Made by a program: the position numbers and the translations under genes. Below the pieces are notes generated by a model that had not been told where the DNA came from, did no database searches, and was given only the letters and a program-made list of their open reading frames with translations. Of a stretch of DNA of 18,911 nt, positions 1 to 15,228 are shown in pieces. The DNA is taken from positions 1 through 18,911 of the IMG/VR virus record IMGVR_UViG_2724679293_000031. One strand, given 5' to 3'. The stretch comes from a virus. Taxonomy: Duplodnaviria; Heunggongvirae; Uroviricota; Caudoviricetes. Position 1 is the first letter of the stretch, and each line of letters opens with the position of its first letter.

Positions 1-573
1 ATGTTTTGCGAAGAAAAAGTAGCTCAAATGGCTGCATACCTACTTCTTAAGAGAGGTGGGCGCATGGCATATCTGAAATTGATGAAGCTGCTCTATCTGT
101 CTAACCGCCAGTCGATTTTGAAGCATGGCAGGATGATCGGCGAAGATAGCCTTTACTCTATGAAATTTGGACCAGTCATGTCGAATACGCTGAACTTGAT
201 TCGCGGTAAGGCTGAAGGCATTGGTGACTACTGGTACAACTTGATAGAGACGAACGGGCATAATGTATCGTTGCGTTCAGATCCGAGGGAAATGGATGCA
301 GACGAGGTCTTTGATGAATTGAGTCGTGCAGATATCCGGATTTTAGATGAAATCTATTCTCGGTATGGGCATATGAACCGATTTGATCTCGCAAATATGA
401 CGCATTTAGAAAGCGTTTGTCCAGAGTGGCACGATCCTGGCAATTCTCGTAAGCCTATAGACCTGAAAGAAATGCTGATCAGTGAGGGTAAAAGCGAGGA
501 TGAGGCTAATCGCATAATTGGCAAAATGGAAGAATCTCAGAAACTTAAGGAATTTTCTTTGCAATTATCATGA
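1..573 (+). CDS. Panacea-domain (DUF4065, SocA/GepA-like) antitoxin-like protein; may be 5'-partial at window edge
   Basis: 190-aa ORF with the motif pattern KLxKLLY...FGPV typical of DUF4065/GepA phage-associated proteins (recalled, not searched). Stop overlaps the next ORF's start (ATGA at 570-573). Confidence 0.55.
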   Translation: MFCEEKVAQMAAYLLLKRGGRMAYLKLMKLLYLSNRQSILKHGRMIGEDSLYSMKFGPVMSNTLNLIRGKAEGIGDYWYNLIETNGHNVSLRSDPREMDADEVFDELSRADIRILDEIYSRYGHMNRFDLANMTHLESVCPEWHDPGNSRKPIDLKEMLISEGKSEDEANRIIGKMEESQKLKEFSLQLS

Positions 574-989
574 CGGATTATCAGCCATACAGGAAAGGAA
601 CTGTGCTTGCCCCAACTGGACCATGCAATCATCTTCATGTGATTTGTAATGATCCTGTTTATTACCCCGTTAACGATTGTTATTGTGTTTTAGTTGTTAA
701 TATTTCTAGTATCAAGGATGGTGTCCCCCACGATCCGTCTTGCGTCTTGAATTCTGGTGATCATCGCTTTATCAAGCATCCAAGTTATGTTGTTTACGCT
801 GAAGCTATAATTTGGCGAGTGGATAACATGGTTAGAAAGCAGCGATCGGGTGAGATTTCTGTTCATGATGATATGCCAGAAGCTACATTCAATAGAATTC
901 TGGACGGTTTTGATATCTCTGATGAAGTTACGCCAAAGAACCTTAAATTTAAAAATAAATATTGCGTATCATCTATTGATGATGAGTAA
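570..989 (+). CDS. hypothetical protein, candidate toxin partner of the upstream Panacea-domain gene
   Basis: 139-aa ORF translationally coupled to the upstream gene by a 4-bp overlap; no own SD at normal spacing. Product has no motif I recognise; composition is protein-like. Confidence 0.4.
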   Translation: MTDYQPYRKGTVLAPTGPCNHLHVICNDPVYYPVNDCYCVLVVNISSIKDGVPHDPSCVLNSGDHRFIKHPSYVVYAEAIIWRVDNMVRKQRSGEISVHDDMPEATFNRILDGFDISDEVTPKNLKFKNKYCVSSIDDE

Positions 990-1028
990 ACAACAGGAAT
1001 TGTTTCGGTATAACTTCTGGAGTTTTCT

Positions 1029-1202
1029 ATGGAAGATCAAAAAGCAACCAAGCCACAGGTTAAGTTCGACACAATGAAAGCATTCGTAGGTATGGGTGCT
1101 GCTGTTGAAGTTCTGATGAAGGCTGCTCCTAATGCGTTCACTCACGCTACTGTCTCTGGTAAAGAGCAGCAGGGTAAGCTTCGTCGTCTCAAAGCAGCAT
1201 GA
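1029..1202 (+). CDS. small hypothetical protein (57 aa)
   Basis: ATG at 1029 preceded by GGAG (1019-1022); TGA at 1200-1202 is followed immediately by an intrinsic terminator. Below the ORF-track size cutoff. Confidence 0.4.
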   Translation: MEDQKATKPQVKFDTMKAFVGMGAAVEVLMKAAPNAFTHATVSGKEQQGKLRRLKAA

Positions 1203-1221
1203 TCATAGCTGGTGCTTTTTG

Positions 1222-1250
1222 AAAACCCGCCTTCAGGCGGGTTTTTTCTT
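1222..1250. terminator. bidirectional rho-independent terminator between convergent genes
   Basis: AACCCGCC-TTCA-GGCGGGTT hairpin followed by TTTTCTT on the plus strand; reverse complement also gives hairpin plus a short T run. Sits between the plus gene ending 1202 and the minus gene ending 1250. Confidence 0.6.
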
Positions 1251-1531
1251 TAGTGATTTTCTTTGCCCTTCTGTTTGACTGTTCTGACCTGTTCCCACTC
1301 GATACGTCCTTCTTCTCGCCTTTTGTCTATGTATTCCGCAAGATCCTGAATATTGATGCAACGTTTTGCTTTTTGTGATGTGCCGATGCGATATGTTGGA
1401 ACGGGCAACTTACAAGCGTTTGCTTTTGCTTCTGCCGTGGCTGGACTCATACCAAAGTACTTTTGGCTAACTGCTGAGAGTTCAATGTTTGGGGTATTGA
1501 ATTCAGCCATCAGTAAAAACAAGGTGTTCAT
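1250..1531 (-). CDS. PrtN-family (pyocin-activator/excisionase-like) DNA-binding protein
   Basis: Start chosen at the internal ATG (1531) with GGAG 7 nt upstream. N-terminus MNTLFLLMAEF... resembles PrtN-family proteins (recalled). Confidence 0.55.
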   Translation of the reverse strand: MNTLFLLMAEFNTPNIELSAVSQKYFGMSPATAEAKANACKLPVPTYRIGTSQKAKRCINIQDLAEYIDKRREEGRIEWEQVRTVKQKGKENH

Positions 1532-1567
1532 AATTTTCTCCATCAAAACCGGCTGCACCCGGGAAAA

Positions 1568-2140
1568 TCATAATTCTGTGCTGGTGGCAGGAATTAATTT
1601 CTGCCAGATAGCGGAAACATATTTTGCCTGATGACGGGCATCAGCCAGGGCGTTGTGCCGTTCGCCATCGAAAGGCATGTCCATTTTGGGGTCGAATCCG
1701 ATGGAACGCCCAAGCGTAACGATCGTGCGTACATCGTGGTCATTCCAGTATGCCCACGGGCAGATTTGTCCTGCTCGCTCATAAGCTCCACGTAAAATTA
1801 CGTTGTCGAAGGTGGCTCCGTTACCCCAGACTTTTAAATATTTCGTATTGTCTGCGTGCCGGTTAATGAAATGATTTAGTTCTGAGAGAGCATCGCTGAT
1901 CGACAAAGTATCATCAATACAGATTGCAGCTCGTGCTTCAGGGCTTTGTTTCAACCACCACAGGATGGTATCGCCGTCAGGTGTAGCTCCTTGCTCCATA
2001 GCACTTTCCAGGCTAACAACCGTATAGAATTCTTGTCCGATGTCTCCGATTTCTGGAGTGAAGAACACCGCGCCAATGGAAACGATCGGTGCATCCTTAT
2101 TTTTCCCCATCGTCTCAAGGTCGATCATTAAGTTGTTCAT
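1568..2140 (-). CDS. DEDDh-type 3'-5' exonuclease (phage early gene)
   Basis: MIDLETMG matches the DnaQ-like Exo I motif (DxE). GGAGG SD upstream of the ATG at 2140; stop/start overlap with the upstream gene. Confidence 0.7.
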   Translation of the reverse strand: MNNLMIDLETMGKNKDAPIVSIGAVFFTPEIGDIGQEFYTVVSLESAMEQGATPDGDTILWWLKQSPEARAAICIDDTLSISDALSELNHFINRHADNTKYLKVWGNGATFDNVILRGAYERAGQICPWAYWNDHDVRTIVTLGRSIGFDPKMDMPFDGERHNALADARHQAKYVSAIWQKLIPATSTEL

Positions 2141-2706
2141 CACTTCACCTCCAGCGGCGGTTCCGGTAGCGGCATCCAGTGAGTTGCTTGCTCAATACCA
2201 TTACCCGGCTTAATCGTTGCATCTCCGCGCCGAAAGGTGCTTCCGGTATAGCGTGCGGAGCATATTAGCGGTTCAACCTGAGAGCTATCGAAATTCACCG
2301 AAATAAGCACGTTCTGGCCCTTTTCAGGCATTCGATCACTACAGCTTATCCAACTATCCGGAGTTCCCGGAGAGTTGCCATTTACATCGAAGTTTGGCTC
2401 TGCGTCCTGAACTAGGAGGATGTAACCATTTTTGGCTGTATCAAGTTCTAACGCCTCGGTGACGGTACCGAAATAGCGATTACCTAAATCAACATCACAA
2501 GTGCTTACATCAATGGAAACTTCCATGCCTTCGATTAATTCTGGCAAGTTGTAAGTTTGGCTTACAGGCTCTGCTTCCAGCGATACCAGTGCAATTCGTG
2601 CCAGTTCTTCCGCTTCTTCTGCTGGCAGTACAACGTTGCTGCCAGGTCCGTATGTTTCGCGCCACTGCTGGATTGTCAGCAGTCGCCCTTTGGTAATAGT
2701 GATCAT
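2140..2706 (-). CDS. DUF551 domain phage protein
   Basis: C-terminal ...THWMPLPEPP is the characteristic DUF551 ending (recalled). AAGGAA SD upstream; ATGA overlaps at both ends. Confidence 0.65.
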   Translation of the reverse strand: MITITKGRLLTIQQWRETYGPGSNVVLPAEEAEELARIALVSLEAEPVSQTYNLPELIEGMEVSIDVSTCDVDLGNRYFGTVTEALELDTAKNGYILLVQDAEPNFDVNGNSPGTPDSWISCSDRMPEKGQNVLISVNFDSSQVEPLICSARYTGSTFRRGDATIKPGNGIEQATHWMPLPEPPLEVK

Positions 2707-3218
2707 GCCGCGTTTCCTTCTTTCTTATTAACAATCACACCGTCATATATTTCATTAAGGTGCCCTCTCAACTCCATGCGCCTTAATGCAGATAACATGT
2801 AATCGCATTCAACCTGCTTATTCCCAGTAAATGGCTTATCGTCAGGATTACCCCAACAGCAATTACCCCTGGGCCATCCATGTACTTTCCGTACTCTTCC
2901 GTTAACAACGTGAAGTAATCCCCAGCCGGGAGGTAAATCCTCAACTGAAATAATTTCCGGCTCACTAATAAAGAATCGCCAGTCGCCCATGCCAAGTGAG
3001 GGATTTTTACGGAAACGCTTTTTTCTATCTGCCAACAAGTCAGCACGAGAACACTTCGCCTCTATCAGGCATGATGCTGAATTTCTGAATCCCATAGCAT
3101 CTGGCTGTTCTCCGGTACTGGTTACAGCAACAAAGCGGTCATGAAAGCAAACCTTGAACCCGTTGCGCTTAAGGAACTTGTACGCAATCTGACAGAGTTC
3201 GTGGTGTGTTAACGCCAT
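2703..3218 (-). CDS. hypothetical protein with PD-(D/E)XK-like nuclease motif
   Basis: Start at internal ATG 3218 with AAGGAGAG SD. Sequence ...GEQPDAMGF(x8)LIEAKC... fits a PD...ExK catalytic signature; family not identified. Confidence 0.5.
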   Translation of the reverse strand: MALTHHELCQIAYKFLKRNGFKVCFHDRFVAVTSTGEQPDAMGFRNSASCLIEAKCSRADLLADRKKRFRKNPSLGMGDWRFFISEPEIISVEDLPPGWGLLHVVNGRVRKVHGWPRGNCCWGNPDDKPFTGNKQVECDYMLSALRRMELRGHLNEIYDGVIVNKKEGNAA

Positions 3219-3219
3219 A

Positions 3220-3768
3220 TCACTCTCCTTTGATGCGAATGCCTGTTGCAATGCTGTTTATGATGCTGTCAGTGCATGGGGTAGAAAGCTGGGCATCTCC
3301 AGCAATTTTCATGACCTCAACATCTGCATATCGAATACCGAGGTGTATCAGACCGGCTATGCCTGACTTAAGCCGAGCATTTTCCATAAATAGAACTTTT
3401 GCCCGCTGTTTTTCTGCTTCAAGCTCAACGCGCAGCTTCCCTACCGTTAGCGCAATATCCTCGTTCTCCTGATCGCGGCTTTTGATGTATTGCAGGTTTC
3501 TTTCCTGTTCATCCAGCAGTGCCAGCACGGTAGCCGGGTTAGCCTCTGCTATGAATTCAGCGTTTGCATAAGCCTGAGCATCTGATTCAATCAGGCAGTT
3601 AACATGACATTCCGCAATCACGCCACCGGGTTCTCCTTTCCATTTTTGGCAAACAAAAACTCCTGTTAAATTGCCGTGCTGGTTAACAGATGTATGCCCT
3701 ACGATGTAGCTTCCTTTAGTTGCTTTCTCTGCCTTTTCACGCAGTGCCTGATAGTTAATTTGGGTCAC
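3220..3768 (-). CDS. phage early protein, Ead/Ea22-like (tentative)
   Basis: 182-aa ORF tightly packed in the early-left operon with a coiled-coil-like middle. Family assignment is from memory and uncertain. Confidence 0.45.
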   Translation of the reverse strand: MTQINYQALREKAEKATKGSYIVGHTSVNQHGNLTGVFVCQKWKGEPGGVIAECHVNCLIESDAQAYANAEFIAEANPATVLALLDEQERNLQYIKSRDQENEDIALTVGKLRVELEAEKQRAKVLFMENARLKSGIAGLIHLGIRYADVEVMKIAGDAQLSTPCTDSIINSIATGIRIKGE

Positions 3769-3974
3769 TCTTCATCCTCCAAGTCGGCAACGGCGTCCAT
3801 CACATCAGAACCGCGAATAACCTCAAAAGCACGGCAGGCCATTTGAAATACCAGTTGCTCTTGCGGATGCGGTGATTCCCAATATTTGAATCCAGGGCGA
3901 TGCGCGTACCCCATCATTGAATAAAAATCACCAGCAAGCTTAATCGCGGCATCAACAAGCTCTCTGTTAGTCAT
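3765..3974 (-). CDS. small hypothetical phage protein (69 aa)
   Basis: Start taken at internal ATG 3974, 11 nt after the upstream gene's stop (3986); the track's longer form from 4022 would overlap that gene by 37 nt. Stop overlaps the next gene's start. Confidence 0.4.
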   Translation of the reverse strand: MTNRELVDAAIKLAGDFYSMMGYAHRPGFKYWESPHPQEQLVFQMACRAFEVIRGSDVMDAVADLEDEE

Positions 3975-3985
3975 TCTTTTTCCGC

Positions 3986-4597
3986 TCACTGGTTGCCTCC
4001 TTTGCGAATCTGTTCCGCCCATTCTTCTAGGGATTTCTCCGCATATTCACCGGACAGGCCATCAATCGGGTGTGGTTCATTAGCCAACTCTTCTTTCGCT
4101 GACAGAATCATGCGTGTAACGTCGAAAACTTCACGTAAAGACTTATTGATAAATCCGTGATTGAAAGCAGCAGCAAGACGGCTTGCGGTATAGTTAATCC
4201 CCTCGTTGCGTGCTTCCGCACGAATTTCAGCCAGGAAAGCATCGGTGGCTGGAGTTTCGCTGTGGTGTAGGGCATCGTTGATAATCATTGCAGCAACACC
4301 AGCCTGCCCTGCATCCGTGACCGACACATGCTCAAGAGTTACGGCCATTGCGTGTTTCAGCCCCGCATTCTCCGCCGCCAGCGCCGAAAACTTCTCGTGT
4401 GCCAACTTAACAGCTGCATCAGCCTGCTTAATTGACTCAATCGCTTTCTGTTGGTCTTCGGACAGAGCCAAAATCTTGGCCTCCGCTTCAGCAAATTTAC
4501 GCACCAGATATTCAGCATTTGTTTCATTCACTTTCAGATCTCGTGGTACACATTTCCCGCGAAGAAACCCTTCCATTTCGAAAACATTCATGCGCAT
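3986..4597 (-). CDS. hypothetical phage protein, predicted coiled coil
   Basis: 203-aa ORF with GGAG 8 nt upstream; Ala/Glu/Lys-rich heptad-like N-terminal half. No family recognised. Confidence 0.5.
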   Translation of the reverse strand: MRMNVFEMEGFLRGKCVPRDLKVNETNAEYLVRKFAEAEAKILALSEDQQKAIESIKQADAAVKLAHEKFSALAAENAGLKHAMAVTLEHVSVTDAGQAGVAAMIINDALHHSETPATDAFLAEIRAEARNEGINYTASRLAAAFNHGFINKSLREVFDVTRMILSAKEELANEPHPIDGLSGEYAEKSLEEWAEQIRKGGNQ

Positions 4598-5124
4598 GTG
4601 CGTAACTCCGATAACTCGTTAAAGCGCTCCATAAACATCCCGTAGGCATGGCTCGGAGCCAGTGGAATAACTTTGAACATTTCTGTTGCCGGGATACCTT
4701 CCAGTACTGGCCAGAAAGAGCCATCATCAAGCCCGAGATCGCGGCGTTCGGTTGCCAGCATGATGAGATCGGCATATTTCACAGGCGTGCTCATAACCGG
4801 GGGTAACCCGTATTTCTCACGGATTACGGCGTCTATTTTTTCTTCCATCCGTTTATAGTCAGGAAGAAGGCGTTTCAGTGGAGCGGGAATATCCTGGCAA
4901 TACGCTTCTGTTGCATCATGCATTAACGCTTCAAAAGCAAATTCCTGCGGCACCAGCTGGCTGCAAAGAACCGCATGTTGGGCGACGCTGTAGAAGTGCG
5001 AAAGATGACCGGCAAAGCGACAGATATTTGAAAGGGAAACCGCGATATCGTTAATATCGATGTCGTCTTTATTTATCCTGTCATAATAAAAATGCTTCCC
5101 AGAAAAAGTTTTGATAAATGACAT
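4588..5124 (-). CDS. HD-domain phosphohydrolase (YfbR/YfdR-like 5'-deoxynucleotidase family)
   Basis: H...HD motif (HFYSVAQHAV ... LMHDATEAY). Start at internal ATG 5124 with GGAG SD, giving 178 aa. Confidence 0.7.
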   Translation of the reverse strand: MSFIKTFSGKHFYYDRINKDDIDINDIAVSLSNICRFAGHLSHFYSVAQHAVLCSQLVPQEFAFEALMHDATEAYCQDIPAPLKRLLPDYKRMEEKIDAVIREKYGLPPVMSTPVKYADLIMLATERRDLGLDDGSFWPVLEGIPATEMFKVIPLAPSHAYGMFMERFNELSELRTCA

Positions 5125-5251
5125 TTTGTTCTCCACGTATATGCGCTGCACCGCGCTGAATTCTGGTAAAAAGAATCCCTCACCATCCGGCGATTATTGA
5201 GTAAATTACGTTTCCATAAATGCCCCCGCAGGGGCATTTGCAGTAATGAAA

Positions 5252-5911
5252 TCAGGCGGTGAAAGTACCAATAAAGGTTTCTACTTTGCTGTCCTTGAAT
5301 TTCTCAACAAGCAGATCACGAAATTCGTTAGCCATTTCTTCCTGCACCGCCTCCAGCTGAATAATGCGCAGAACCAGTACAGGACGATCGCCAGTGATAA
5401 TGCTGAGGCGTAATTTAAACGGACGTTCTTTCAGACCTTCAAACGGAACGCATTTAAATTCAAATGCCACTGGCATAATATCTTTGGTCTTCGCTTCGAC
5501 AGACTCCATCAGGGAGCGTTTGCCGCTGAAGTCATTATCTTCAAAATCAGCGGTCTGGTTTGCTTCAATCGTGATTTTACGGACCGCCGCAGCCGCTTTT
5601 GTTGCCTGAATAGCGTCACCATTAGCATCAAAGCCCACAAGGTAGTCGGCCCAGTCTTCAATCCATTCTGCCAGTGACTTCTGGGAGTTACGCTCGCCGT
5701 TAACAGACAACAGGGCAGAGAACGGTGCTGTCTTTTTCAGTTTGAGAGTGGCGGTGTTATCTGCGTGACCTGGTTCATCAATAGTACCCAGGTTAAGCAC
5801 ACTGACTGCTCGCATATTATCGGCATCGATAAAGCAGCGGGTGCCTTCATCTGCAAGATCTTTAGAATAACGGGTAAAGTCATCGATGCTGGCAGTGGAA
5901 AGCGCACCACG
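5252..5911 (-). CDS. DUF2303 (YfdQ-like) phage protein, 5' end lost in assembly gap
   Basis: The frame stays open for 32 codons upstream of the track's ATG (5815) right up to the N-run, so the true N-terminus lies in the gap. Family assignment by recalled similarity and synteny with CPS-53-like yfdP-yfdQ-yfdR. Confidence 0.5.
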
Positions 5912-5917
5912 NNNNNN
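5912..5917. other. assembly gap (N-run) of unknown true length
   Basis: Six N characters; the flanking minus-strand ORF is open into the gap. Confidence 0.9.
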
Positions 5918-5951
5918 GATGAGATAAATAATCAGTTAATTAAGAACGATA

Positions 5952-6314
5952 TTAATGACCTTCTGCGCGGAGTTTTCCGTCAGGTTCACCGGCAAGAGTC
6001 AGTAATTGTCCCTGGTCTTCCTGCAGAATAGTCAGGCGACCACCGCGATTGACATACATCGGCGTTTCGGTGGTGTCTTCTTCAGAAATTTTCCCGCGGT
6101 TAGTCGGGCGAACATATGAGAGTTTGTGTTTGATTTTCACACGGTTCTCATCAAACGGTTCGATTTCCAGGTTGAGCGAGACCTTACCTTTGGTTTTCGT
6201 GTTCATCACACCGGAAGCGACTTCACTGAGAACTGCGCCGATTTTGGTTTCAAATACGCCGCCGTCCAGCTCCCCGATAAATGCCTGCACATCAGTACTG
6301 CGTTCGCTAGCCAT
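5952..6314 (-). CDS. hypothetical phage early protein (121 aa; YfdP-like by position)
   Basis: Start at ATG 6314 with GAGGAG SD 7 nt upstream. The track's longer N-terminal extension (to 6500) reads through a structured leader and is not protein-like. Confidence 0.55.
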   Translation of the reverse strand: MASERSTDVQAFIGELDGGVFETKIGAVLSEVASGVMNTKTKGKVSLNLEIEPFDENRVKIKHKLSYVRPTNRGKISEEDTTETPMYVNRGGRLTILQEDQGQLLTLAGEPDGKLRAEGH

Positions 6315-6362
6315 TTTGCTACTCCTCATCATATCGACCCTGCAAGGTCGGTTGGTTTCTCC

Positions 6363-6461
6363 ACAAAACAGAGAAGAACACCTGCGGTGGCAGCCGCCCG
6401 GATGGATTGGGTTATGAGCCCGTCGTCCGGTGATGCTCTTCTCTGTTTTGTAAAAAGAGCG
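6363..6461 (-). promoter_or_regulatory. boxA-like element plus extended stem-loop in the early-left leader (candidate nut/put-like antitermination site)
   Basis: Minus strand reads CGCTCTTTTTACAA (similar to boxA, CGCTCTTTA/TGCTCTTTAACAA), followed by a perfect 15-bp inverted repeat (6363-6377 / 6437-6451) enclosing about 58 nt that contains further short stems. Confidence 0.3.
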
Positions 6462-6928
6462 GTACCAGCCGTAAGCAAGTGTACAAACTGGTACCGCCAA
6501 AGCAGTGGCTGCTGTGGTGACCGGTGCTGATCTCCGGCTTGCGGTTATTTCAGACTCTCACGGGCGTTTAATTGCCCCGCCGAACAGCTCTTTTCCGCAA
6601 TAGCTGCAATGTCTTTCGCGCATCAGCCTGCGCATTCACCACAACGCTGAGAGCACTTAGCCAGTTACGGCACCACACTTTGTCGCGGTTCCATAAATGC
6701 CCTCATCGTTGCACCCTGGTCTCTTCCCAGGCGTCAAACCGAATCGCCACGCTGGTTAGGCGTCTTATCAGCGTCATCATTGACTTGCACATTCCGGCTA
6801 CCTGGTTTGTTTGCTCGAGCAAGGAGTGGATTGTCCCCTTTAACGTCACCAGACCGCTAACGACGCATGTGCCATACGCCGTGTTACAACCAAATTTTGT
6901 TAGTACCTTGTTTGTATGTCTGGAAAGA

Positions 6929-6957
6929 AAGATAAAATGAAGTTGCGCATTATGCAA
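6929..6957 (-). promoter_or_regulatory. candidate early-left promoter (pL-like) overlapping operator sites
   Basis: Minus strand TTGCAT (6957-6952), 17-nt spacer, TATCTT (6934-6929). The -35 lies inside a TTGCG-N5-TGCAA operator-like site. Confidence 0.3.
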
Positions 6958-6992
6958 GTGTTTTTATTGCGAGATATGCAATTTGGTGGGTG

Positions 6993-7016
6993 ATGAAAAG
7001 CCACCTTCTGGTGGCT
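6993..7016 (-). terminator. intrinsic terminator downstream of the cI-like gene
   Basis: Minus strand AGCCACC-AGAA-GGTGGCT hairpin followed by TTTTC, about 20 nt after the cI stop. Confidence 0.4.
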
Positions 7017-7036
7017 AATTGATGTTGAGGTAGGGG

Positions 7037-7729
7037 TTAATTGTGTCGCTTAAGGGTTTGTGACTGACTGATTAAGACCTTTCCAAAGACCATAAACCGA
7101 TGTTCGTTTTCGCTGGTAATTCCCCATTCGCGGTAAATCTGATTATCAGAAATTACCAGCAGTTTATCAGGTATCATTTGCAGTCGTTTGACGTAAATTT
7201 TATCATCAAAACCAAATGCATATATACCATCCCCATCAAACTGATTGATACTGATATCAACGAAGATGAGATCTCCTGGCTCAATGGTTGGACACATACT
7301 GTCCCCACGAACGTTGATAACTTTAATGTGATTTGCTGGTCGTCCACCAAACATCGATACAGCATTATCAGTTCTGTATTCAATGGCATGAATCACATCA
7401 ATGACATCACCGCCCTGGATAAGGCCATTTCCCGCACTGGCACTGACATCCAGCATTTCAATACGGAATACATCCTTCACCTGCGCAACATCCTCACTAA
7501 TACTGTTTTTACATACAGTATTACTTTTGAGGTCTGAGGTAAAGAGATCAGCAATATCAACACCTAAGCTCCTGGCAATATTACTCAGGGCTTGTTCAGT
7601 GAATTGTTTCTGCTTACCTGTTTCGAGGCGCGAGATATTCGCCGCATCCACTCCTATTGCTTCAGCGAGATCGGCGATTTTCATGTTCTTCGCCTGGCGA
7701 AGTTGTCTGACTCGATTTCCTATGTTCAT
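7037..7729 (-). CDS. cI-like prophage repressor (XRE-type HTH plus S24/LexA-like autopeptidase domain)
   Basis: N-terminal HTH (…IADLAEAIGVDAANISRLETGK…); C-terminal GDSM motif (VRGDSMCPTIEPGD) and downstream KRL lysine typical of S24 self-cleaving repressors. Divergent from a cro-like gene. Confidence 0.85.
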   Translation of the reverse strand: MNIGNRVRQLRQAKNMKIADLAEAIGVDAANISRLETGKQKQFTEQALSNIARSLGVDIADLFTSDLKSNTVCKNSISEDVAQVKDVFRIEMLDVSASAGNGLIQGGDVIDVIHAIEYRTDNAVSMFGGRPANHIKVINVRGDSMCPTIEPGDLIFVDISINQFDGDGIYAFGFDDKIYVKRLQMIPDKLLVISDNQIYREWGITSENEHRFMVFGKVLISQSQTLKRHN

Positions 7730-7826
7730 GCGTTTATTACATTTCTTTATTGCGCGTTAAGCAAATCAACTTGCGCAAAATATTTGCGTGAAATAATATG
7801 CTCATCACGCAATATGTGGAGGTTAT
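7730..7826. promoter_or_regulatory. immunity switch region: OR operator-like sites with candidate pR and pRM
   Basis: Plus strand TTGCGC (7772-7777), 17 nt, TAATAT (7795-7800) as pR for cro. Minus strand TTGCTT, 17 nt, TGTAAT (7742-7737) 7 nt from the cI ATG, giving a near-leaderless cI mRNA. Operator-like TTGCGCGTTAAGCAA (7751-7765) and CGCAAAATATTTGCG (7775-7789). Confidence 0.4.
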
Positions 7827-8087
7827 ATGCAATCACCATTACGGAATGTGCGTAAGGCGCACGGATTTACTTTGCAGCATGTTGCTGCGGGCGTTCAGGT
7901 CAATCCAGCGACGCTGAGTCGTATTGAAAGACAGGAACAAATTCCATTTATCGATCTTGCAGAACGTCTGGCCAATTTTTTTAAGGGTGAAATCAGCGAA
8001 ATGCAGATTCTTTATCCGGCACGTTTTCAATCTAGCCAAAACCAGAATGGGTTTAAACCACAGGAACAGGAGGTAAGCCGTGGGTAA
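7827..8087 (+). CDS. Cro-like HTH regulator
   Basis: 86-aa ORF, GGAGG SD, HTH segment (…HVAAGVQVNPATLSRIERQE…); divergent from cI. Confidence 0.7.
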   Translation: MQSPLRNVRKAHGFTLQHVAAGVQVNPATLSRIERQEQIPFIDLAERLANFFKGEISEMQILYPARFQSSQNQNGFKPQEQEVSRG

Positions 8088-8631
8088 GCATCACTGGAAA
8101 GTGGAAAAACAACCTGAGTGGTACGTGAAAGCTGTCAGAAAAACTATCGCGGCGTTGCCGGGAGGTTACGCTGAAGCTGCTGAGTGGCTGGATGTAACAG
8201 AGAACGCTTTATTCAACCGCCTTCGTGCAGATGGCGATCAGATTTTCCCGCTGGGATGGGCAATGATTTTACAGCGCGCGGCTGGCACTCACTACATTGC
8301 GGATGCTGTCGCACAGTCTGCTGGTGGGGTGTTTGTATCGCTTCCTGAAATTGAGGAAGTAGAGAACGCCGATATAAACCAGCGCCTGCTGGAAGCCATC
8401 GAACAGATCGGGAGTTACTCAAAGCAGATTCGTTCGGCAATCGAAGATGGGGTAGTGGAGCCACACGAGCAGACAGCAATTAATGATGAGTTGTATCTGT
8501 CAATTTCGAAGCTCCAGGAGCATGCAGCACTGGTCTACAAAATCTTTTGCGCTCCAGAAAAGAGTGACGCCCGCGAGTGTGCAGCTCCGGGCGTCGTGGC
8601 GTTTTGTGTCTGTGGAGAAACTAACGCATGA
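8080..8631 (+). CDS. cII-position early regulatory protein (possibly YdaT-like family)
   Basis: GTG start at 8080 with AGGAGG SD 5 nt upstream, overlapping the cro stop. Position immediately after cro. Family assignment tentative. Confidence 0.5.
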   Translation: MGKHHWKVEKQPEWYVKAVRKTIAALPGGYAEAAEWLDVTENALFNRLRADGDQIFPLGWAMILQRAAGTHYIADAVAQSAGGVFVSLPEIEEVENADINQRLLEAIEQIGSYSKQIRSAIEDGVVEPHEQTAINDELYLSISKLQEHAALVYKIFCAPEKSDARECAAPGVVAFCVCGETNA

Positions 8632-8776
8632 ACAGTTTAACGGCAAATAACCGTTTGTCGCAACAGCTGGTGGTCAGCGTCGCTGAACACCTGTTGTTAC
8701 GGCATGAATGCAGATTACCAAATCACCTGGCTGTAAGTAACCACAGAGAACTTTACCTGACTGTGGGGGGCGAGTT

Positions 8777-8956
8777 GTGCAGGAACTTAACCGCTGGTTT
8801 CGTGACGGAAGAGGGCTTTATGTCCATGTTATTCGTTGGGAGCCAGAAACACAGCGCGTTATCTATCTTCGCAAAGACTACCCGCATGAGTGCTTTAGTC
8901 CTTTGTGGAAATTCAGGCGTGATTTTGTTGAGTGTGAAGGACCACCAGCATATTGA
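8777..8956 (+). CDS. small hypothetical protein (59 aa), tentative
   Basis: GTG start preceded by GGGGGG (8765-8770). Product ...ELNRWFRDGRGLYVHVIRWEPETQRVIYLRKDYPHECFSPLWKF... has protein-like composition. Just below the track cutoff and in a different frame from the track's 8628 ORF. Confidence 0.3.
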   Translation: MQELNRWFRDGRGLYVHVIRWEPETQRVIYLRKDYPHECFSPLWKFRRDFVECEGPPAY

Positions 8957-9041
8957 TTCTGCAATTCCGGGACGTTACACTGCTCAGGCACCTTATAAAG
9001 CGGGTGCCGGGATTGGCGTCCTGAAATTCGCACATGCGCAT

Positions 9042-9066
9042 AACCGCGCTTCAGCGGTTTTTTTGC
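9042..9066 (+). terminator. intrinsic terminator upstream of rha
   Basis: AACCGC-GCTTCA-GCGGTT hairpin followed by six more T residues (9060-9065). Confidence 0.45.
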
Positions 9067-9227
9067 GCACGTTTCCTCACATCCAAATTATGGTGGGGCG
9101 TGCAGGGGCATCGAAAGATGCGCCGGGGTCATGTGCGACCGGTTACGCCAACCCTGTACGTCTCACCACCTCTGTGATTGGCGTCCCATGTGGTGAGTTT
9201 TCAAAATTCGCACATGAGGATGTCACT

Positions 9228-9773
9228 ATGGCAACCACCCCTACCCAAACTCACCCTAAAATTGATGTTATCCATGGGAAGGCTGTTACCTCTTCTTTGG
9301 CCGTTGCCGAATATTTCTGCAAGCAGCACAAAAACGTTATTCAAAAAATCCAGACGCTTGAGTGCTCTGTTGAATTCACTGAGCTGAATTTTCAGCCCAG
9401 TGATTACACCGATTGCACAGGCCGCAAACTCCCTTGTTACCAAATCACCCGCGACGGTTTTGCGTTTCTTGCCATGGGCTTCACGGGTAAACGTGCTGCC
9501 CAGTTCAAAGAGGCATACATCAATGCCTTTAACCAGATGGAGAAACAGCTTTCAAATCCCTCTGTACTGAGCGACGTTGCACATAACGCCAGCGTTCTCT
9601 ATTCCTACATTTCATCAATTCATCAGGTCTGGCTGCAGCAGCTTTATCCTATGTTGGCAAAAGCCGAATCTCCGCTGGCTGTTAGCTTGTATGACTATAT
9701 TAATGATGCTTCGGCACTGGCCTGCCTCATAAATTTGTCGCTGAACCCTTCAGAGGTAAGGGGGCGCAAATGA
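9228..9773 (+). CDS. Rha-family phage regulatory protein
   Basis: Start at internal ATG 9228 with GAGGA SD. N-terminal Rha domain signature (…KAVTSSLAVAEYF…NFQPSDYTD…YQITRDGFAFLAMGFTGKRAAQFKEAYINAFNQME). Confidence 0.7.
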   Translation: MATTPTQTHPKIDVIHGKAVTSSLAVAEYFCKQHKNVIQKIQTLECSVEFTELNFQPSDYTDCTGRKLPCYQITRDGFAFLAMGFTGKRAAQFKEAYINAFNQMEKQLSNPSVLSDVAHNASVLYSYISSIHQVWLQQLYPMLAKAESPLAVSLYDYINDASALACLINLSLNPSEVRGRK

Positions 9774-9994
9774 TCCGGAATATTTTCAAACGGTTTACCA
9801 ATCAGACTTTCCGTTGTCCTCGTCCGGGTCAGTGGTACACCACACCTGCAGGGCATGTTCTACGTGTTAGCCTGGTTGACCGTGAATGTCAGAAGGTGAT
9901 TTGTGAACCGCTGGGCCGTAATTACCGCGTCAGTATGCCGCTTATAGCCTTTCGCTCCGGAAAAAACATGAAGCATCTCGGAGGTGCAGCATGA
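9770..9994 (+). CDS. small hypothetical protein (74 aa)
   Basis: ATGA overlaps at both ends (rha stop, O-like start); GAGGTAAGGGGG SD upstream. Confidence 0.5.
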   Translation: MIRNIFKRFTNQTFRCPRPGQWYTTPAGHVLRVSLVDRECQKVICEPLGRNYRVSMPLIAFRSGKNMKHLGGAA

Positions 9995-10830
9995 GTATGG
10001 AGCTGATGGTTAAAGCGATGAAAATTCGAGTGGGTAATCCATTGCGAAAACTGGTTCTGATCAAGCTGGCTGATAATGCCAGCGATCAGGGTGAGTGCTG
10101 GCCCAGCTACCAGCATATTGCTGACCAGTGCGAGATTAGCAAACGTTCTGTGATGAATCATATTGCGGCCCTTTGTGAGTCCGGGCTGGTAAAAAAAGTC
10201 ACCCGGAAAGGTGAAAAAGGTAACTCAAGTAATATCTATCTCCTTCATCTTGATGGTGCAGGAGATTCACTAGGGAGTAGTGCAAATAATTCACTATCTG
10301 GTGCAGCAAATTCACCAGGTAGTGCAGGAGTTGCACTAGGTAGTGCAGGAGTTGCACCAGGGGGTAGTGCAGGAGATTCACCCAGAACCAGTCACTCTTT
10401 TGAACCAGTCAAAGAACCAGTCAATGAACCAATAGCTGTTGGTGCATCTGCTGATGAGTCTGTGCGAGTTCGTTCAAACCGACCGGAATACTCTCCAGAG
10501 TTTGAGCAGGCATGGCTGGCATATCCCAAACGTGCTGGTGGCAATTCAAAATCTGCAGCCTTCAAAGCCTGGAAAGCCCGTTTGAATGAGGGGGTAAACC
10601 CCGAAACCATGCTGGAAGGTGTGAAACGCTACGCGGGCTGGGTATCTGCGATGGGTAACAGCGGCACACAATTTGTGAAACAGGCTGTCACGTTCTTTGG
10701 TCCGGATCGTCATTTCGAAGAATCCTGGGAAGTTCCTGCGGTATCTGTAGCCGGACGTGAGGACCCGTACTTCAAAGCCAGTTACGACAACGTGGACTAC
10801 AGCCAGATCCCGGCAGGATTCAGGGGGTGA
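9991..10830 (+). CDS. O-like replication initiation / replisome-organiser protein with HTH N-terminal domain
   Basis: GGAGG SD. N-terminal HTH typical of phage replication proteins, a Gly/Ser/Ala-rich linker encoded by tandem DNA repeats, and a conserved C-terminal region (…AWKARL…TFFGP…). Confidence 0.6.
   Translation: MSMELMVKAMKIRVGNPLRKLVLIKLADNASDQGECWPSYQHIADQCEISKRSVMNHIAALCESGLVKKVTRKGEKGNSSNIYLLHLDGAGDSLGSSANNSLSGAANSPGSAGVALGSAGVAPGGSAGDSPRTSHSFEPVKEPVNEPIAVGASADESVRVRSNRPEYSPEFEQAWLAYPKRAGGNSKSAAFKAWKARLNEGVNPETMLEGVKRYAGWVSAMGNSGTQFVKQAVTFFGPDRHFEESWEVPAVSVAGREDPYFKASYDNVDYSQIPAGFRG
10255..10433 (+). repeat. iteron-like tandem repeats inside the O-like gene (candidate phage ori)
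   Basis: About six tandem 21-24-bp units with core (A/G)GTGCAGGAG(A/T)T(T/G)CAC (10255-10383), followed by 3.5 copies of GAACCAGTCA (10385-10433). Confidence 0.45.
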
Positions 10831-10832
10831 TC

Positions 10833-11321
10833 ATGAGTCTTTTGAATGACGTTCAGAAATTCATTGAAGCCCATCCGGGGTGTACTTCCGGAGACATTGC
10901 GGATGCTTTTGCAGGTTACTCACGGCAGCGCGTTCTGCGGTCAGCAAGCAAGTTACGTCAGAGCGGGCGTGTGGCTCACCGTTGTGAAGGAGATACACGC
11001 AGACATTTCCCGCGCCTGACTGAGAGAGCGCAGGAACCGGAACCACAACCAGTTCGAGAAACCAGACCTGTGCGCAATTTCTATGTCGGCACTAACGATC
11101 CACGGGTGATTTTGTGCCTGACCCGCCAGGCGGAAGAACTGGAGTCCAGGGGCTTATACCGTCGTGCTGCAACGGTGTGGATGGCGGCATTCCGTGAAAG
11201 CCACTCCCAGCAAGAGCGAAACAATTTTCTGGCGCGTCGTGAGCGGTGCTTACGGAAAAGCAGCAAGCGCGCTGCATCGGGTGAAGAGTGGTATCTGTCA
11301 GGGAATTACGTGGGGGCTTAA
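10833..11321 (+). CDS. PerC-family (Pch-like) transcriptional regulator
   Basis: Start at ATG 10833 with GGGGG SD. ELESRGLYRRAATVW matches the recalled PerC-family signature (E-LE-x-KGLWRRAA-x-RW). Confidence 0.5.
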   Translation: MSLLNDVQKFIEAHPGCTSGDIADAFAGYSRQRVLRSASKLRQSGRVAHRCEGDTRRHFPRLTERAQEPEPQPVRETRPVRNFYVGTNDPRVILCLTRQAEELESRGLYRRAATVWMAAFRESHSQQERNNFLARRERCLRKSSKRAASGEEWYLSGNYVGA

Positions 11322-11646
11322 TGAGTAATAAATATTGCCAGGCGCTGGTGGAACTGCGGAACAAACCAGCCCATGAACTGAAGGAAGTGGGCGATCAGTG
11401 GCGCACGCCGGACAACATTTTCTGGGGAATTAACACCCTGTTTGGCCCGTTTGTTCTGGATCTGTTCACTGACGGTGATAATGCCAAATGTGCCGCGTAT
11501 TACACGGCGGAAGACAACNNNNNAAGACCTGGAAGGGACCGGCAATCAGCTACATCGGGCGCGATGAACTTGAGGCATGTGGTGAGGCCTTTCTGGCGCA
11601 GGTTCGCCAGCAGGCGGAAAAACTGGTCAGGGAGATGGCGGCATGA
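11321..11646 (+). CDS. phage DNA N6-adenine methyltransferase (Dam family), interrupted by an assembly gap
   Basis: N-terminus MSNKYCQALVELRNKPAHELKEVGDQWRTPD...FGPFVLDLFTD... is the recalled phage Dam signature. The N-run at 11519-11523 breaks the frame; a 40-codon C-terminal piece resumes in another frame and ends at TGA 11644-11646. Confidence 0.6.
11519..11523. other. assembly gap (N-run) of unknown true length
   Basis: Five N characters; reading frame before and after is inconsistent with a literal 5-nt gap. Confidence 0.9.
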
Positions 11647-11969
11647 CGACGTTAACTCAATGCCAGCAGCAGGTGCTGGATATGCTGATTTCTTACCAGA
11701 AAGAGCGTGGCTTTCCGCCAACCAATCAGGAGGTGGCAACCATGCTGGGATATCGTTCAGTGAATGCAGCGGTGGAGCATCTTCGCGCACTGGAGAAAAA
11801 AGGCGTCATCACGATAAAGCGTGGTGTGGCCCGGGGGATAACGCTTCATACCGCGGTGAAGGACGACGACAGCGAGGCGGTCGGGATTATCCGCTCACTG
11901 CTTGCCGGTGAGGAAAACGCCAGGCTGCGTGCAGCCCACTGGTTACATGAGAGGGGTCTGAAAGTATGA
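11643..11969 (+). CDS. LexA N-terminal DNA-binding-domain homologue lacking the S24 protease domain
   Basis: 108 aa; LTQCQQQVLDMLISYQKERGFPPTNQEVATMLGYRSVNAAVEHLRALEKKGVITIKRGVARGI aligns by eye with the E. coli LexA N-terminus ([63 protein letters not shown]). No Ser/Lys autocleavage region. Confidence 0.65.
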   Translation: MTTLTQCQQQVLDMLISYQKERGFPPTNQEVATMLGYRSVNAAVEHLRALEKKGVITIKRGVARGITLHTAVKDDDSEAVGIIRSLLAGEENARLRAAHWLHERGLKV

Positions 11970-12355
11970 AGCTGATTCTGCCTTTCCCGCCCAGCGTGAA
12001 CACGTACTGGCGACACCCCAACAAAGGGGCGTTTGCAGGTAAGAGCCTGATAAGCGCGGCGGGGCGCAAATTCCAGAGCGCGGCGTGTGCAGCAATAGTT
12101 GAGCAGTTACGTCGTCTGCCAAAACCAACGTCGGCACCTGCTTCAGTGGAGATCGTGTTGTTTCCTCCGGATAACCGGATCCGCGATCTGGACAACTATA
12201 ACAAGGCGCTGTTTGACGCCCTGACCCACGCGGGTGTGTGGGAAGACGACAGTCAGGTGAAAAGAATGCTGGTGGAGTGGGGACCGGTTATCCCGGAAGG
12301 GAAGGTCGAGATCACTATCAGTAAGTACGAGAAAACGGCGGGTGCAGCCGCCTGA
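11966..12355 (+). CDS. rusA: RusA-family Holliday junction resolvase
   Basis: LPFPPSVNTYWRH... and ...RDLDNYNKALFDALTHAGVWEDDSQV match conserved RusA motifs; ATGA overlap with the upstream gene. Confidence 0.8.
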   Translation: MKLILPFPPSVNTYWRHPNKGAFAGKSLISAAGRKFQSAACAAIVEQLRRLPKPTSAPASVEIVLFPPDNRIRDLDNYNKALFDALTHAGVWEDDSQVKRMLVEWGPVIPEGKVEITISKYEKTAGAAA

Positions 12356-12374
12356 TTAAGAGGAGAAACGAAGT

Positions 12375-13172
12375 ATGAATAATCTGATGGTCATTGATGG
12401 TATTGAAGTTCGTCGTGATGCTTATGGTCGTTACAGCCTGAACGATCTGCACAGGGCTGCCGGTTCTCTGGATAAGCATAAGCCTGCATTCTGGCTCCGC
12501 AATGAGCAAACTGAGCGTTTAATAAGCGAGTTGCAGATTTGCAACTCGGTCAATATAGAGCCAGTTAACGTTATTCGTGGCGGAAATAACCAGGGGACGT
12601 ATGTCTGCAAAGAACTGGTGTATGCCTATGCAATGTGGATCAGCCCGTCATTCCATCTGAAGGTGATCCGTACTTTCGACATGGTAACCAGCGCACCGGA
12701 AAAATTATCCGGACAGGCTGCTGACAAGATGCAGGCTGGTGTGATTCTGCTGGACTTTATGCGCCGGGAGTTAAATCTGTCTAACTCTTCAGTGCTTGGA
12801 GCCTGTCAGAAACTTCAGGAGGCTGTTGGCTTACCGAATCTGGCACCGCGCTATGCCATTGATGCTCCTGCTGATGCGCCTGATGGCTCAAGCCGCCCCA
12901 CGCTGTCGCTGAGTGCACTGCTGAAACAGTATGGTATCCGCCTGACGGCTAATCAGGCATATCACCAGATGGTGAAGCTGGGGATCGTCGAGCAGCGCGA
13001 ACGATACAGTCGTACCGCGATTAACAACATCAAAAAATTCTGGTCGCTGACAGCGAAAGGCTGCATGTTCGGCAAGAACATCACCAGTCCCGCAAATCCG
13101 CGCGAGACGCAGCCGCATTTCTTCGAATCCCGATTCCCTGAGCTGTTAAAGCTGCTCGATACCGTTCATTGA
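12375..13172 (+). CDS. KilA-N domain protein (antirepressor-like)
   Basis: AGGAG SD; N-terminal KilA-N-like segment (IEVRRDAYGRYSLNDLHRAAG…WLRN…QGTYVCKELVYAYAMWISPSFHLKVI). Confidence 0.65.
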   Translation: MNNLMVIDGIEVRRDAYGRYSLNDLHRAAGSLDKHKPAFWLRNEQTERLISELQICNSVNIEPVNVIRGGNNQGTYVCKELVYAYAMWISPSFHLKVIRTFDMVTSAPEKLSGQAADKMQAGVILLDFMRRELNLSNSSVLGACQKLQEAVGLPNLAPRYAIDAPADAPDGSSRPTLSLSALLKQYGIRLTANQAYHQMVKLGIVEQRERYSRTAINNIKKFWSLTAKGCMFGKNITSPANPRETQPHFFESRFPELLKLLDTVH

Positions 13173-13173
13173 G

Positions 13174-14169: not shown

Positions 14170-14186
14170 TTTTGTGGAGAAAGTTG

Positions 14187-14552
14187 ATGCGTGATATTCA
14201 AATGGTTCTTGAACGTTGGGGGGCATGGGTGGCAAATAATCACGAGGATGTCACCTGGTCGTCTATTGCTGCAGGATTTAAAGGACTAATCCCTTCAAAA
14301 GTAAAATCCCGCCCGCAATGTTGTGACGATGACGCGATGATCATTTGTGGATGCATGGCTCGCCTGAAAAAGAACAACAGCGATTTGCACGATTTATTAG
14401 TGGATTATTATGTAGGTGGTATGACTTTTATGGCGCTTGCCCGTAAACATGGGCGTTCTGATTGCTGGGTTGGGCGTTTATTGCAAAAGGCTGAAGGTGT
14501 AGTTGATGGCATGTTAATGATGTTAGAAATTGAGCTAGAGATGGATCGTTAG
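14187..14552 (+). CDS. late-gene antiterminator Q (phage 82 / QuuD-like family)
   Basis: Start at ATG 14187 with GGAG 7 nt upstream. [34 protein letters not shown]...[16 protein letters not shown]... matches recalled QuuD-type Q proteins. Confidence 0.65.
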
Positions 14553-14594
14553 AAGACCTCTTATTGAGGGGGTAATTGAATCAGTTTAATGTGT

Positions 14595-14630
14595 GGGGAG
14601 TCGATTTATTCTCCCCATTTTATTTAATTT
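14595..14630 (+). terminator. intrinsic terminator downstream of Q
   Basis: GGGGAG-TCGATTTATT-CTCCCC hairpin followed by ATTTTATTTAATTTATTT. Confidence 0.45.
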
Positions 14631-14632
14631 AT

Positions 14633-15079: not shown

Positions 15080-15202
15080 GTTTCTTATCCATTGTTAAGG
15101 GCATACCCACACAATTATTTTTATTGGAGATGAATAATCAACCGTTTACAATCGTAAAAAATCAAATATGCTGTTAAGAGTGGTTACTTCGCCACACAAC
15201 TT

Positions 15203-15228
15203 AAACCCGCCGCTGAGCGGTTTTTTTG
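15203..15228 (+). terminator. intrinsic terminator in a divergent intergenic region
   Basis: AAACCCGCCGCTGAGCGG followed by TTTTTTT (15221-15227). Confidence 0.45.

Follow-up and report, generated by a model that had tools for sequence, protein, structure and literature searches.

The window analysed here, 18,911 nucleotides (nt) of a virus of the Caudoviricetes (positions 1 to 18,911 of IMG/VR record IMGVR_UViG_2724679293_000031), is a lambdoid prophage of the SfV/mEp460/cdtI type, and the interval between its early-left promoter pL and the first early-left gene yfdP (6315-6990) is the early-left operon leader of an N-less prophage of the SfV/mEp460/ST64B type. In this leader, transcription from pL along the minus strand runs through a series of non-coding RNA modules, in the order module X, H1 hairpin #1, a tRNA-derived scaffold with a variable insert, a predicted intrinsic terminator (tL0), H1 hairpin #2 and the ribosome-binding region of yfdP. 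These modules are RNA structures of the pL-sense strand that are conserved and covary, and they do not code for protein. By analogy with known RNAs we propose, at about even odds (roughly 0.5), that the leader would serve first as a terminated, scaffolded small RNA and second, on read-through, as an mRNA with a hairpin in its 5' untranslated region (UTR). The features of the leader are as follows.

6929..6981, minus strand: pL with two operator 15-mers (oL); -35 TTGCAT at 6957-6952, -10 TATCTT at 6934-6929, 17-nt spacer
6713..6896, minus strand: module X, 184 nt, non-coding; its long core is invariant and its two 3' hairpins covary
6635..6716, minus strand: H1 hairpin #1, stem 6712-6696 / 6658-6641, variable tip
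6514..6642, minus strand: tRNA-shaped 'kissing-elbow' domain, 129 nt, acceptor-like stem GUGGUGA/UCACCAC, A6513 at the discriminator position
6633-6618 and 6537-6521, minus strand: D-like arm (4-8-4) and T-like arm (5-7-5) of the tRNA-shaped domain
6452..6498, minus strand: predicted intrinsic terminator tL0, arms GCGGUACCAG at 6497-6488 and CUGGUACCGC at 6468-6459, then UCUUUUU
6363..6451, minus strand: H1 hairpin #2, a three-way junction with a stem of 23 base pairs (bp)
6430-6398, minus strand: hairpin I of H1 #2, with top GGGCUCAUAACCC at 6421-6409
6397-6384, minus strand: hairpin II of H1 #2, variable in length and sequence
6312..6362, minus strand: proximal 5' UTR of yfdP, with conserved GGAGAAAC at 6362-6355, a small hairpin with a UUGCAG loop at 6350-6335 and the Shine-Dalgarno sequence GAGGAG at 6327-6322
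5952-6314, minus strand: yfdP, the first early-left gene (RefSeq annotation), ATG at 6314-6312

The H1 hairpin family

A pattern scan of viral contigs recovered at least 120 loci with the H1 stalk, CACAAC-A-GG-U-AAG...CUU-U-CC-GUUGUG, which encloses a tip of 40-70 nt and is followed immediately by GUGGU. This one stalk carries at least 51 unrelated tip cassettes. Over 37 sequences the 18 pairs of the stem were 98.6% paired with seven compensatory changes, and none of 500 shuffles scored as high. The covariance model R1, which was built on 37 H1 sequences from other phages with the window excluded and whose E-values are rough, matched H1 #1 at 31.9 bits (E = 6.5e-8) and H1 #2 at 16.1 bits (E = 0.003, match 6453-6360). 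The 3' strand of H1 #1 continues directly into the tRNA-like domain.

H1 #2 is the element that had drawn the attention of the initial annotation as a perfect 15-bp inverted repeat (6363-6377 / 6437-6451). The repeat is present and extends to 25 nt at 84%, and a 15-mer repeat within 100 nt was found in none of 100 dinucleotide shuffles of the window. The minus-strand RNA of 6355-6465 folds at -51.2 kcal/mol (z = -6.5; none of 200 shuffles was as stable) with two internal stems, and the inverted repeat is both kept and covarying in relatives, RNAalifold on 20 diverse copies gathered by a scan for the tip of hairpin I giving the three-way junction with 37 pairs, nine of them with compensatory change. 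H1 #2 is a divergent H1 subfamily in which the bulged A is paired. Three stem pairs of H1 #2 are U-G in 16-18 of the 20 sequences and one H1 pair is U-G in 27 of 37; such G-U pairs exist only on the pL-sense strand and point to selection acting on the RNA.

The arrangement around H1 #2 is also maintained. Among 104 distinct contexts 98 have an H1-plus-GUGGU scaffold unit within 425 nt upstream, and the gene after H1 #2 varies (two yfdP types, the RdgC-like MNNPFF and MKLPKF, and MSFIKT). The layout in SfV, ST64B and LLS is identical in order to that of the window leader. In relatives the GGAGA element and the hairpin with a (U/G)UGCAG loop recur despite a different downstream gene.

Three other ideas about these hairpins were rejected. 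The H1 3' strand is not an rrn-type boxA (UGCUCUUU), as its GCUC part changes freely together with the bases it pairs with; a kissing interaction of hairpin II of H1 #2 with the small UUGCAG loop was, by eye, not conserved; and a likeness of H1 and X to segments of RNase P (M1) RNA had no Rfam support and was dropped.

BLAST showed a mosaic leader, parts of which turn up in very different phages, with breakpoints at module borders, and near-identical flanks of 15-20 nt enclose sequences unrelated to one another, at least 51 tips and more than 35 inserts, in phages of unrelated families. The repeats could on these grounds be thought to act as DNA, either as recombination joints that shuffle cassettes or as the ends of a small mobile element, with the RNA structure incidental. 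This is very unlikely, as the G-U pairs are valid on the transcribed strand only, the loop-loop covariation described below would be meaningless in duplex DNA, the arm lengths are those of tRNA, and no transposase or dedicated recombinase accompanies the units. Recombination at conserved flanks can, moreover, follow from an RNA function and need not compete with it.

The top of hairpin I, GGGCUCAUAACCC, matches nt 29-41 of the Escherichia coli initiator tRNA (tRNA-fMet) at 13 of 13 bases, including the CAU anticodon loop and the three G-C pairs typical of the initiator; the tRNA sequence was confirmed against 5,426 genomes. The 13-mer was the search anchor, and its invariance among the 20 aligned sequences is by construction. 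Hairpin I is invariant also in flanking bases outside the search pattern (the preceding G and the next pair, 34-53), and its CCGG/CCGG base has two compensatory changes. H1 #2 might accordingly be a functional mimic of the initiator anticodon arm, acting as a decoy or sensor of enzymes directed against tRNA-fMet, or else binding the 30S P site/IF3 or MetRS and so adjusting how translation of the early-left mRNA is initiated, and in an extended form of the idea the H1 tips and the tRNA-like scaffold would together display tRNA parts to host factors. The same 21-nt module recurs in two unrelated hairpin contexts (loci L132 and L163), the H1 tip of P1 has a second CAU-loop version (GGGUUCAUAUCCC) and other tips are T-arm-like, for example GGGUUCGACUCCC. 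VapC of Shigella and Salmonella cuts tRNA-fMet in its anticodon stem-loop (PMC4705866), and SfV and ST64B infect these hosts. We nevertheless consider such mimicry unlikely: the resemblance was spotted post hoc, position 37 is U in ST64B, tRNA mimicry is not recognisable in most of the 51 tip cassettes, and a 13-nt match could be the inheritance of a decayed tRNA gene with no present function.

Perfect look-alikes of the T arm were observed in several H1 tips, with sequences such as GGGUUCGACUCCC or AGAGUUCGACUCUCU (loci L009, L023, L031, L045 and L047).

The tRNA-shaped domain and module X

The domain at 6514-6642 begins with a 7-bp acceptor-like stem and a 2-nt link followed by the D-like arm, and its arm lengths, counted from G1, are those of a tRNA. 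Its two loops, GCUGA and UCAGC, are complementary and form a covarying Watson-Crick loop-loop helix of 5-6 bp. An alignment of 24 distinct sequences from other phages, from which three out-of-register rows were excluded, gave 21 pairs in four helices that were 93% paired with eight compensatory changes; three of the eight lie in the loop-loop helix, and none of 500 shuffles reached this support. Variants in relatives include GUCGA with UCGAC and GACUGA with UCAGU in the loops, and GCAC/GUGC, UCGG/CCGA and CAGG/CCUG in the stems. In the window a 78-nt insert takes the place of the anticodon arm, and relatives carry more than 35 unrelated inserts of approximately 30-180 nt on a nearly invariant scaffold.

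Several properties of a working tRNA are missing. The tertiary pairs G18-psi55 and G19-C56 and an anticodon arm were not found in the domain, pair 53-61 is A-A and not G-C, and no CCA is encoded. Neither ARAGORN nor the Rfam tRNA model called the leader domain or its relatives, the only tRNA calls in the window being at 16426 and 16603. Other members of the class keep a canonical T arm (GGUUCGAGUCC) together with a D-like arm, and for this reason we regard the class as derived from tRNA.

Module X is likewise conserved as RNA, RNAalifold on 13 diverse copies giving 36 pairs, six with compensatory change, with no Rfam match and no conserved reading frames. Its homologues lie between tRNA-Ile (trnI) and ban in P1 and just before tRNA-Arg in phiV10-like phages. 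In O157 typing phage 10, which is phiV10-like (locus L002, 1480-1818), a genuine tRNA-Arg(TCT) follows X and an H1-like 3' strand (AGUGCUCUCAGCGUUGUGG) without a gap, so that the position of the tRNA-like domain is taken by a real tRNA. The last hairpin of X (6714-6732, minus strand; CCUGG-GAAGAGA-CCAGG) combines a stem that covaries with a purine-rich loop that is conserved, and is faintly boxB-like; it is found also in P1 and in phiV10-like phages, with no boxA before it.

Taken more widely, the modules may belong to a previously unrecognised, modular, tRNA-derived RNA family of Enterobacterales phages, in which an H1 stalk that displays interchangeable cassettes, among them the initiator anticodon-arm copy and the T-arm look-alikes, is fused to a tRNA-shaped scaffold with an elbow rebuilt as a kissing helix and with cargo in the place of the anticodon, the whole presenting tRNA parts or programmable sequences to host machinery. 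We put this forward tentatively, as a doubtful though not far-fetched possibility. If true, roles for the family could include decoys or sensors for VapC-type toxins, ligands of the 30S P site, regulators processed by RNase P, and the early-left gate of N-less lambdoid phages.

The terminator tL0 and the case for anti-termination

Between the scaffold and H1 #2 lies tL0, whose arms form an inverted repeat complementary at 10 of 10 positions, with a stem of 10-13 bp and a fold of -26.6 kcal/mol (z = -4.5). It was overlooked by a simple terminator scan since its loop is longer than the 8-nt maximum of that scan. The position is kept in SfV, ST64B and LLS, and in 94 of 104 related contexts a U-tract immediately precedes the following hairpin. 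With a G+C-rich hairpin, a U-tract, the sense strand and a conserved position, tL0 has by sequence all that is expected of an intrinsic terminator. Pairing between the insert and the terminator was considered and set aside, the 8-11 nt concerned being a length common by chance and the pairing not being seen by eye in SfV, ST64B and LLS.

The terminator also accounts for the boxA-like string CGCTCTTTTTACAA (6461-6448) that the initial annotation had placed before the inverted repeat, as this string is the 3' arm and U-tract of tL0. The match is no better than chance: when one mismatch is allowed, a relaxed boxA pattern turns up at least once in 72 of 200 shuffles, and the 8-mer YGCTCTTT occurs 3 times against 1.5 expected. 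Relatives have GTCC, GCCC, GCAC or GACC here but keep the hairpin and the U-tract, and no conserved boxA (CGCUCUUA or UGCUCUUUAACAA) was found in the related leaders. Directly after the boxA-like string there is no boxB-like hairpin, the 23-bp stem with the three-way junction standing there instead, and no second copy of the leader elements was found downstream of pR, model R1 and the domain pattern matching only 6360-6716 in the window. With no boxB, no copy on the pR side and no similarity to HK022 putL, the reading of the region as a divergent nut site or a put-like element finds no support.

A cis-acting RNA anti-terminator of the put kind could still be imagined in a looser form, in which H1 #1 with the tRNA-like domain, or H1 #2, binds the transcribing RNA polymerase or recruits Nus factors, so that tL0 and later terminators are read through in place of the action of N. 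Such an activity would suit a leader with no N gene, a strong terminator before all early-left genes and no internal promoter. H1 #2 always heads the early-left operon, whichever gene comes first, the H1 lower stem is invariant and has a bulged A and a U-U mismatch, as for a surface that contacts protein, and the restriction of the H1 family to Enterobacterales suggests a host partner. The mEp collection as a whole has been described as Nus-dependent (PMC11893012), although mEp460 is unmentioned there and its membership is inferred from its name, and Nus dependence could stem instead from the Q-like late anti-terminator protein encoded at 14172-14552. H1 #2 lies downstream of tL0 and therefore cannot act on it. 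Added to this are the missing pR-side copy, the lack of any HK022 putL likeness by model or by eye, and boxA-like strings that are not conserved. Units occur in tandem in P1 and SopranoGao, a terminator-like hairpin and U-run usually follow the unit where the sequence was read, and in virulent phages the units lie beside tRNA genes and look like independent RNA genes; in virulent phages and in P1, where the modules have tRNA genes as neighbours, the logic of N or put does not apply. We therefore judge an anti-terminator to be rather improbable.

Proposed function of the leader

In the reading that we prefer, derepression of pL would yield mostly an RNA of approximately 470 nt ending at tL0, and this terminated RNA would be matured to a stable small RNA of the STnc100/PasD/C4 type. 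By analogy with the C4 RNA of P1, RNase P is the likely cutter, at G6642, the 5' end of the acceptor-like stem. The variable insert would be the working (pairing) part of the small RNA, and the terminator hairpin with its U-tail could serve as a 3' module of the Hfq type. Only transcripts that read through tL0 would carry H1 #2, at the 5' end of the early-left mRNA, where it may stabilise the message or modulate its translation; since only these transcripts take H1 #2 into the early-left mRNA, tL0 would set the ratio of small RNA to early-left expression.

Several points weigh against this proposal. Every functional step of the small RNA is by analogy, and the window domain had no STnc100 match even at E up to 10. 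A weak point is that a strong tL0 stands before all early-left genes, with no N and no internal promoter (a promoter scan found no promoter-like site between tL0 and yfdP), an arrangement that calls for an anti-termination mechanism which the proposal does not supply. It also leaves unexplained the invariant H1 lower stem, the exact mimic of the initiator tRNA and module X. RNAduplex gave no convincing pairing of the insert with the leader downstream of it, long artificial duplexes dominating the output. Finally, the relatives were gathered by pattern scans on conserved cores, so that the conservation of the cores is partly by construction, and the sequences are related, the compensatory changes coming from few independent events.

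Promoter and coding potential of the interval

The placement of pL at 6929-6957 in the initial annotation is plausible, with -35 and -10 elements, a 17-nt spacer and overlapping operator 15-mers. In a repeat-family search the operator 15-mer TTGCGnnnnnnGCAA was found at 6943-6957 and 6967-6981, where pL overlaps it, and a third copy lies in the cI-cro operator region at 7750-7764. As the pL and cI-cro operators have this 15-mer in common, pL is well placed and controlled by the repressor. Transcription probably starts near 6921.

The leader interval shares 98.8% identity with phage mEp460 and 100% with several E. coli chromosomes. RefSeq annotates no feature under it besides the start of yfdP at 6314, and an Rfam search of 6200-7100, at the gathering score and at E up to 10, returned only chance matches to the Hairpin ribozyme and rydB; most leader modules, though widespread in phages of enteric bacteria, have no Rfam family. 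The initial annotation was right that a large, conserved and stable RNA structure lies in this leader and that its approximately 600 nt between pL and the first gene hold no credible open reading frame (ORF). The region it singled out is real, but the larger part of the structured RNA, upstream at 6514-6896, had escaped it.

A small protein gene hidden in the interval, be it a divergent N or Nun, a 25-codon peptide or a 122-amino-acid plus-strand ORF of mEp460, is scarcely credible. Small coding sequences have been annotated in homologous regions, two in the leader of mEp460 and others over the RNA region of Klebsiella phage Magnus, and the 25-codon ORF MRRLMRERH... pointed out earlier does exist and is Arg-rich. 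As a coding candidate this ORF fails, since MRRLMR is the translation of the conserved D-like hairpin and the peptide ORF runs in relatives from 6 to more than 39 unrelated codons. An 84-amino-acid minus-strand ORF and the 122-amino-acid plus-strand ORF had no Pfam or PHROGs match, and the frame of the latter, annotated in mEp460, shifts between homologues while the DNA stays conserved; where compared, the annotated small frames over the modules of mEp460 and Magnus are not conserved either. There is no RefSeq gene in the leader. As had been supposed, no N-like gene follows pL, the first gene being yfdP, and a search for N-like proteins among all ORFs of 35-200 amino acids with an N-terminal Arg-rich window gave only out-of-frame or internal ones, with no credible candidate in the early operons. 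In mEp460 (L001) the genes gp36 and gp37 are small hypothetical-protein coding sequences on the strand opposite to the conserved RNA modules they cover, and in Magnus four ORFs of 31-44 amino acids are annotated over the modules (locus L004, 410-1408).

Distribution and significance

Units of this kind were found in temperate phages (SfV, ST64B, LLS, mEp460, Stx2 phages, cdtI and P1/P7) and in virulent ones (Klebsiella phage Magnus of the Ackermannviridae, SopranoGao, phage 6991 and swi2), those of virulent phages usually beside tRNA genes and often under small 'hypothetical protein' calls. A scan of one genome per species gave 57 matches, of which 42 were chance matches outside the Enterobacterales and 14 of the 15 true ones were in Enterobacterales. 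The remaining one comes from an alphaproteobacterial assembly, Martelella alba, in which a 4.2-kb scaffold (NZ_SZPQ01000090.1, L351) has a canonical enterobacterial H1 and kissing domain, possibly through contamination. In complete E. coli genomes part of the leader was matched in 2,727 of 5,426 and most of it in 837; 779 of the 4,169 matching places in E. coli are on plasmids, presumably P1-type plasmid prophages.

P1 itself (L003, AF234172 69510-72694) carries two units upstream of tciA, the kissing domain being at 311-406 and the second unit, at approximately 490-700, combining an H1 with the CAU-loop tip GGGUUCAUAUCCC and an STnc100-like domain. Two annotated ORFs, 'upl' (341-532) and 'plp' with its end (to 340), share sequence with the kissing domain, and the second unit extends over the end of upl, its remainder falling in the gap between upl and tciA; both ORFs may be mis-annotated. 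In ST64B (L128, 925-1010) and SfV (L129, 690-780) a common conserved module, AACAGGCAGGACGCCCACGAAGUAGCCGCC...GGAUGAUUCG, stands right after pL and is absent from the window.

The leader thus marks an annotation gap, as it is present in many E. coli genomes, in P1-type plasmids and in P1, SfV and ST64B, yet only occasional spurious ORFs are annotated there. If functional, the modules would be a large and easily searched class of phage non-coding RNA on a tRNA chassis, in which nature has exchanged the tRNA elbow for a kissing helix and made a 'tRNA scaffold' that carries cargo RNA. The layout pinpoints where N-less lambdoid phages must pass a terminator before the early-left genes, and the exact copy of the initiator-tRNA anticodon arm at the head of the operon makes it possible to test whether phage early expression is tied to translation initiation in the host or to toxins that attack tRNA.

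Other features of the window

7037-7729, minus strand: cI-type repressor with helix-turn-helix and S24 peptidase domains
7016-6999, minus strand: terminator closing the cI-type repressor gene
8988-9064, plus strand: isrK, full Rfam score, inside the ORF 8628-9773
9086-9173, plus strand: C4 antisense RNA, full Rfam score, in the pR operon, inside the ORF 8628-9773
14172-14552: Q-like late anti-terminator protein
16426-16501, plus strand: tRNA-Met(CAT), ileX-like
16603-16679, plus strand: tRNA-Arg(TCT)
17376-17565, plus strand: STnc100, full Rfam score, late region

The 381-amino-acid 'antirepressor' ORF at 8628-9773 has a Pfam Phage_ASH match over amino acids 117-211 (approximately nt 8976-9260), which covers isrK and C4, and a Rha domain from amino acid 221; either the two RNAs lie within a coding sequence, or both the start assigned to the ORF and its Ash match are artefactual. 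The STnc100 and C4 RNAs of the window have a UGGUG...CACCA closing helix in common. With C4 in the pR operon and STnc100 in the late region, scaffold RNAs closed by UGGUG...CACCA are thus found in all three long operons (pL, pR and late).

Comparison with known RNAs

In the open-access literature we found no earlier description of tRNA-like phage leader RNAs, although one could have been missed.

HK022 putL/putR resembles the leader in that it belongs to an N-less lambdoid phage and that a structured RNA lies between pL and the first gene. The put sites, however, are two similar copies of approximately 70 nt, one per early operon, with two stem-loops each, and stand upstream of the terminators they suppress, whereas H1 #2 is downstream of the leader terminator and has neither a second copy nor similarity to put. 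The best match of R1 in the HK022 nun-pL-cI region (E = 0.054) was partial and on the wrong strand, with nothing on the pL-sense strand of putL and no likeness by eye. Lambda nutL followed by the RNase III hairpin of the N leader is similar in general plan, a promoter-proximal signal and then a large hairpin before the ribosome-binding site of the first gene, but the window has no N, conserved boxA, boxB or nutR counterpart.

YrlA and Y RNA are comparable as RNAs with a tRNA-derived domain that keeps acceptor, D and T arms and not the anticodon function (PMC4201824). YrlA has the permuted order T, acceptor-like, D, adjoins Ro60 (rsr) and makes normal D-T tertiary contacts, whereas the window domain has the order of tRNA, no rsr nearby and a Watson-Crick kissing elbow; YrlA was rejected as a counterpart for its different topology and the absence of a Ro60 neighbour. 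Weak matches to the Rfam permuted and standard tmRNA models upstream of units, and an ARAGORN 'tmRNA' call in related loci, are probably artefacts of the tRNA-like arms. In phage swi2 (L006, 1111-1485) such a call spans an H1 unit and the neighbouring tRNA-Met; the observation concerns loci L004 and L005 as well.

C4 RNA (RF01695), known from P1/P7 and found with isrK, is described as an RNase P substrate cut from an operon leader (Hartmann et al. 1995, as cited in PMC4919922). Like the proposed small RNA it is a structured RNA in an operon leader; it starts with AUGGUG, ends with CACCACC, is excised by RNase P and acts on downstream genes. It has no sequence match to the leader modules, and the loops of C4 pair with the target whereas those of the window domain pair with each other; the candidate working part here would be the variable insert, for which no target was found.

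The closest resemblance is to STnc100 (RF02076), which is built of a closing helix (A/G)UGGUGAAU...CACCA(U/C), a 5' hairpin, a variable middle, a 3' hairpin and a terminator, an architecture that the window domain also has. At the leader position the STnc100 model scored 39.5 bits in SfV and 35.1 bits in ST64B, the gathering score being 47; the nearest match in P1 (33.4 bits) is to the second, STnc100-like unit and not to the kissing domain. PasD, related to STnc100 according to a preprint, is an abundant small RNA that is bound by Hfq and has many mRNA partners (bioRxiv 10.64898/2026.05.13.724894). Pas small RNAs in general were rejected as counterparts of the leader, as they are of the late region and, apart from the STnc100 kinship of PasD, unrelated to this locus. 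STnc100 differs from the window domain in lacking its 5-6-bp loop-loop helix and exact tRNA arm lengths, and the window domain in turn is preceded by an H1 hairpin and sits in the pL leader rather than in the late region.

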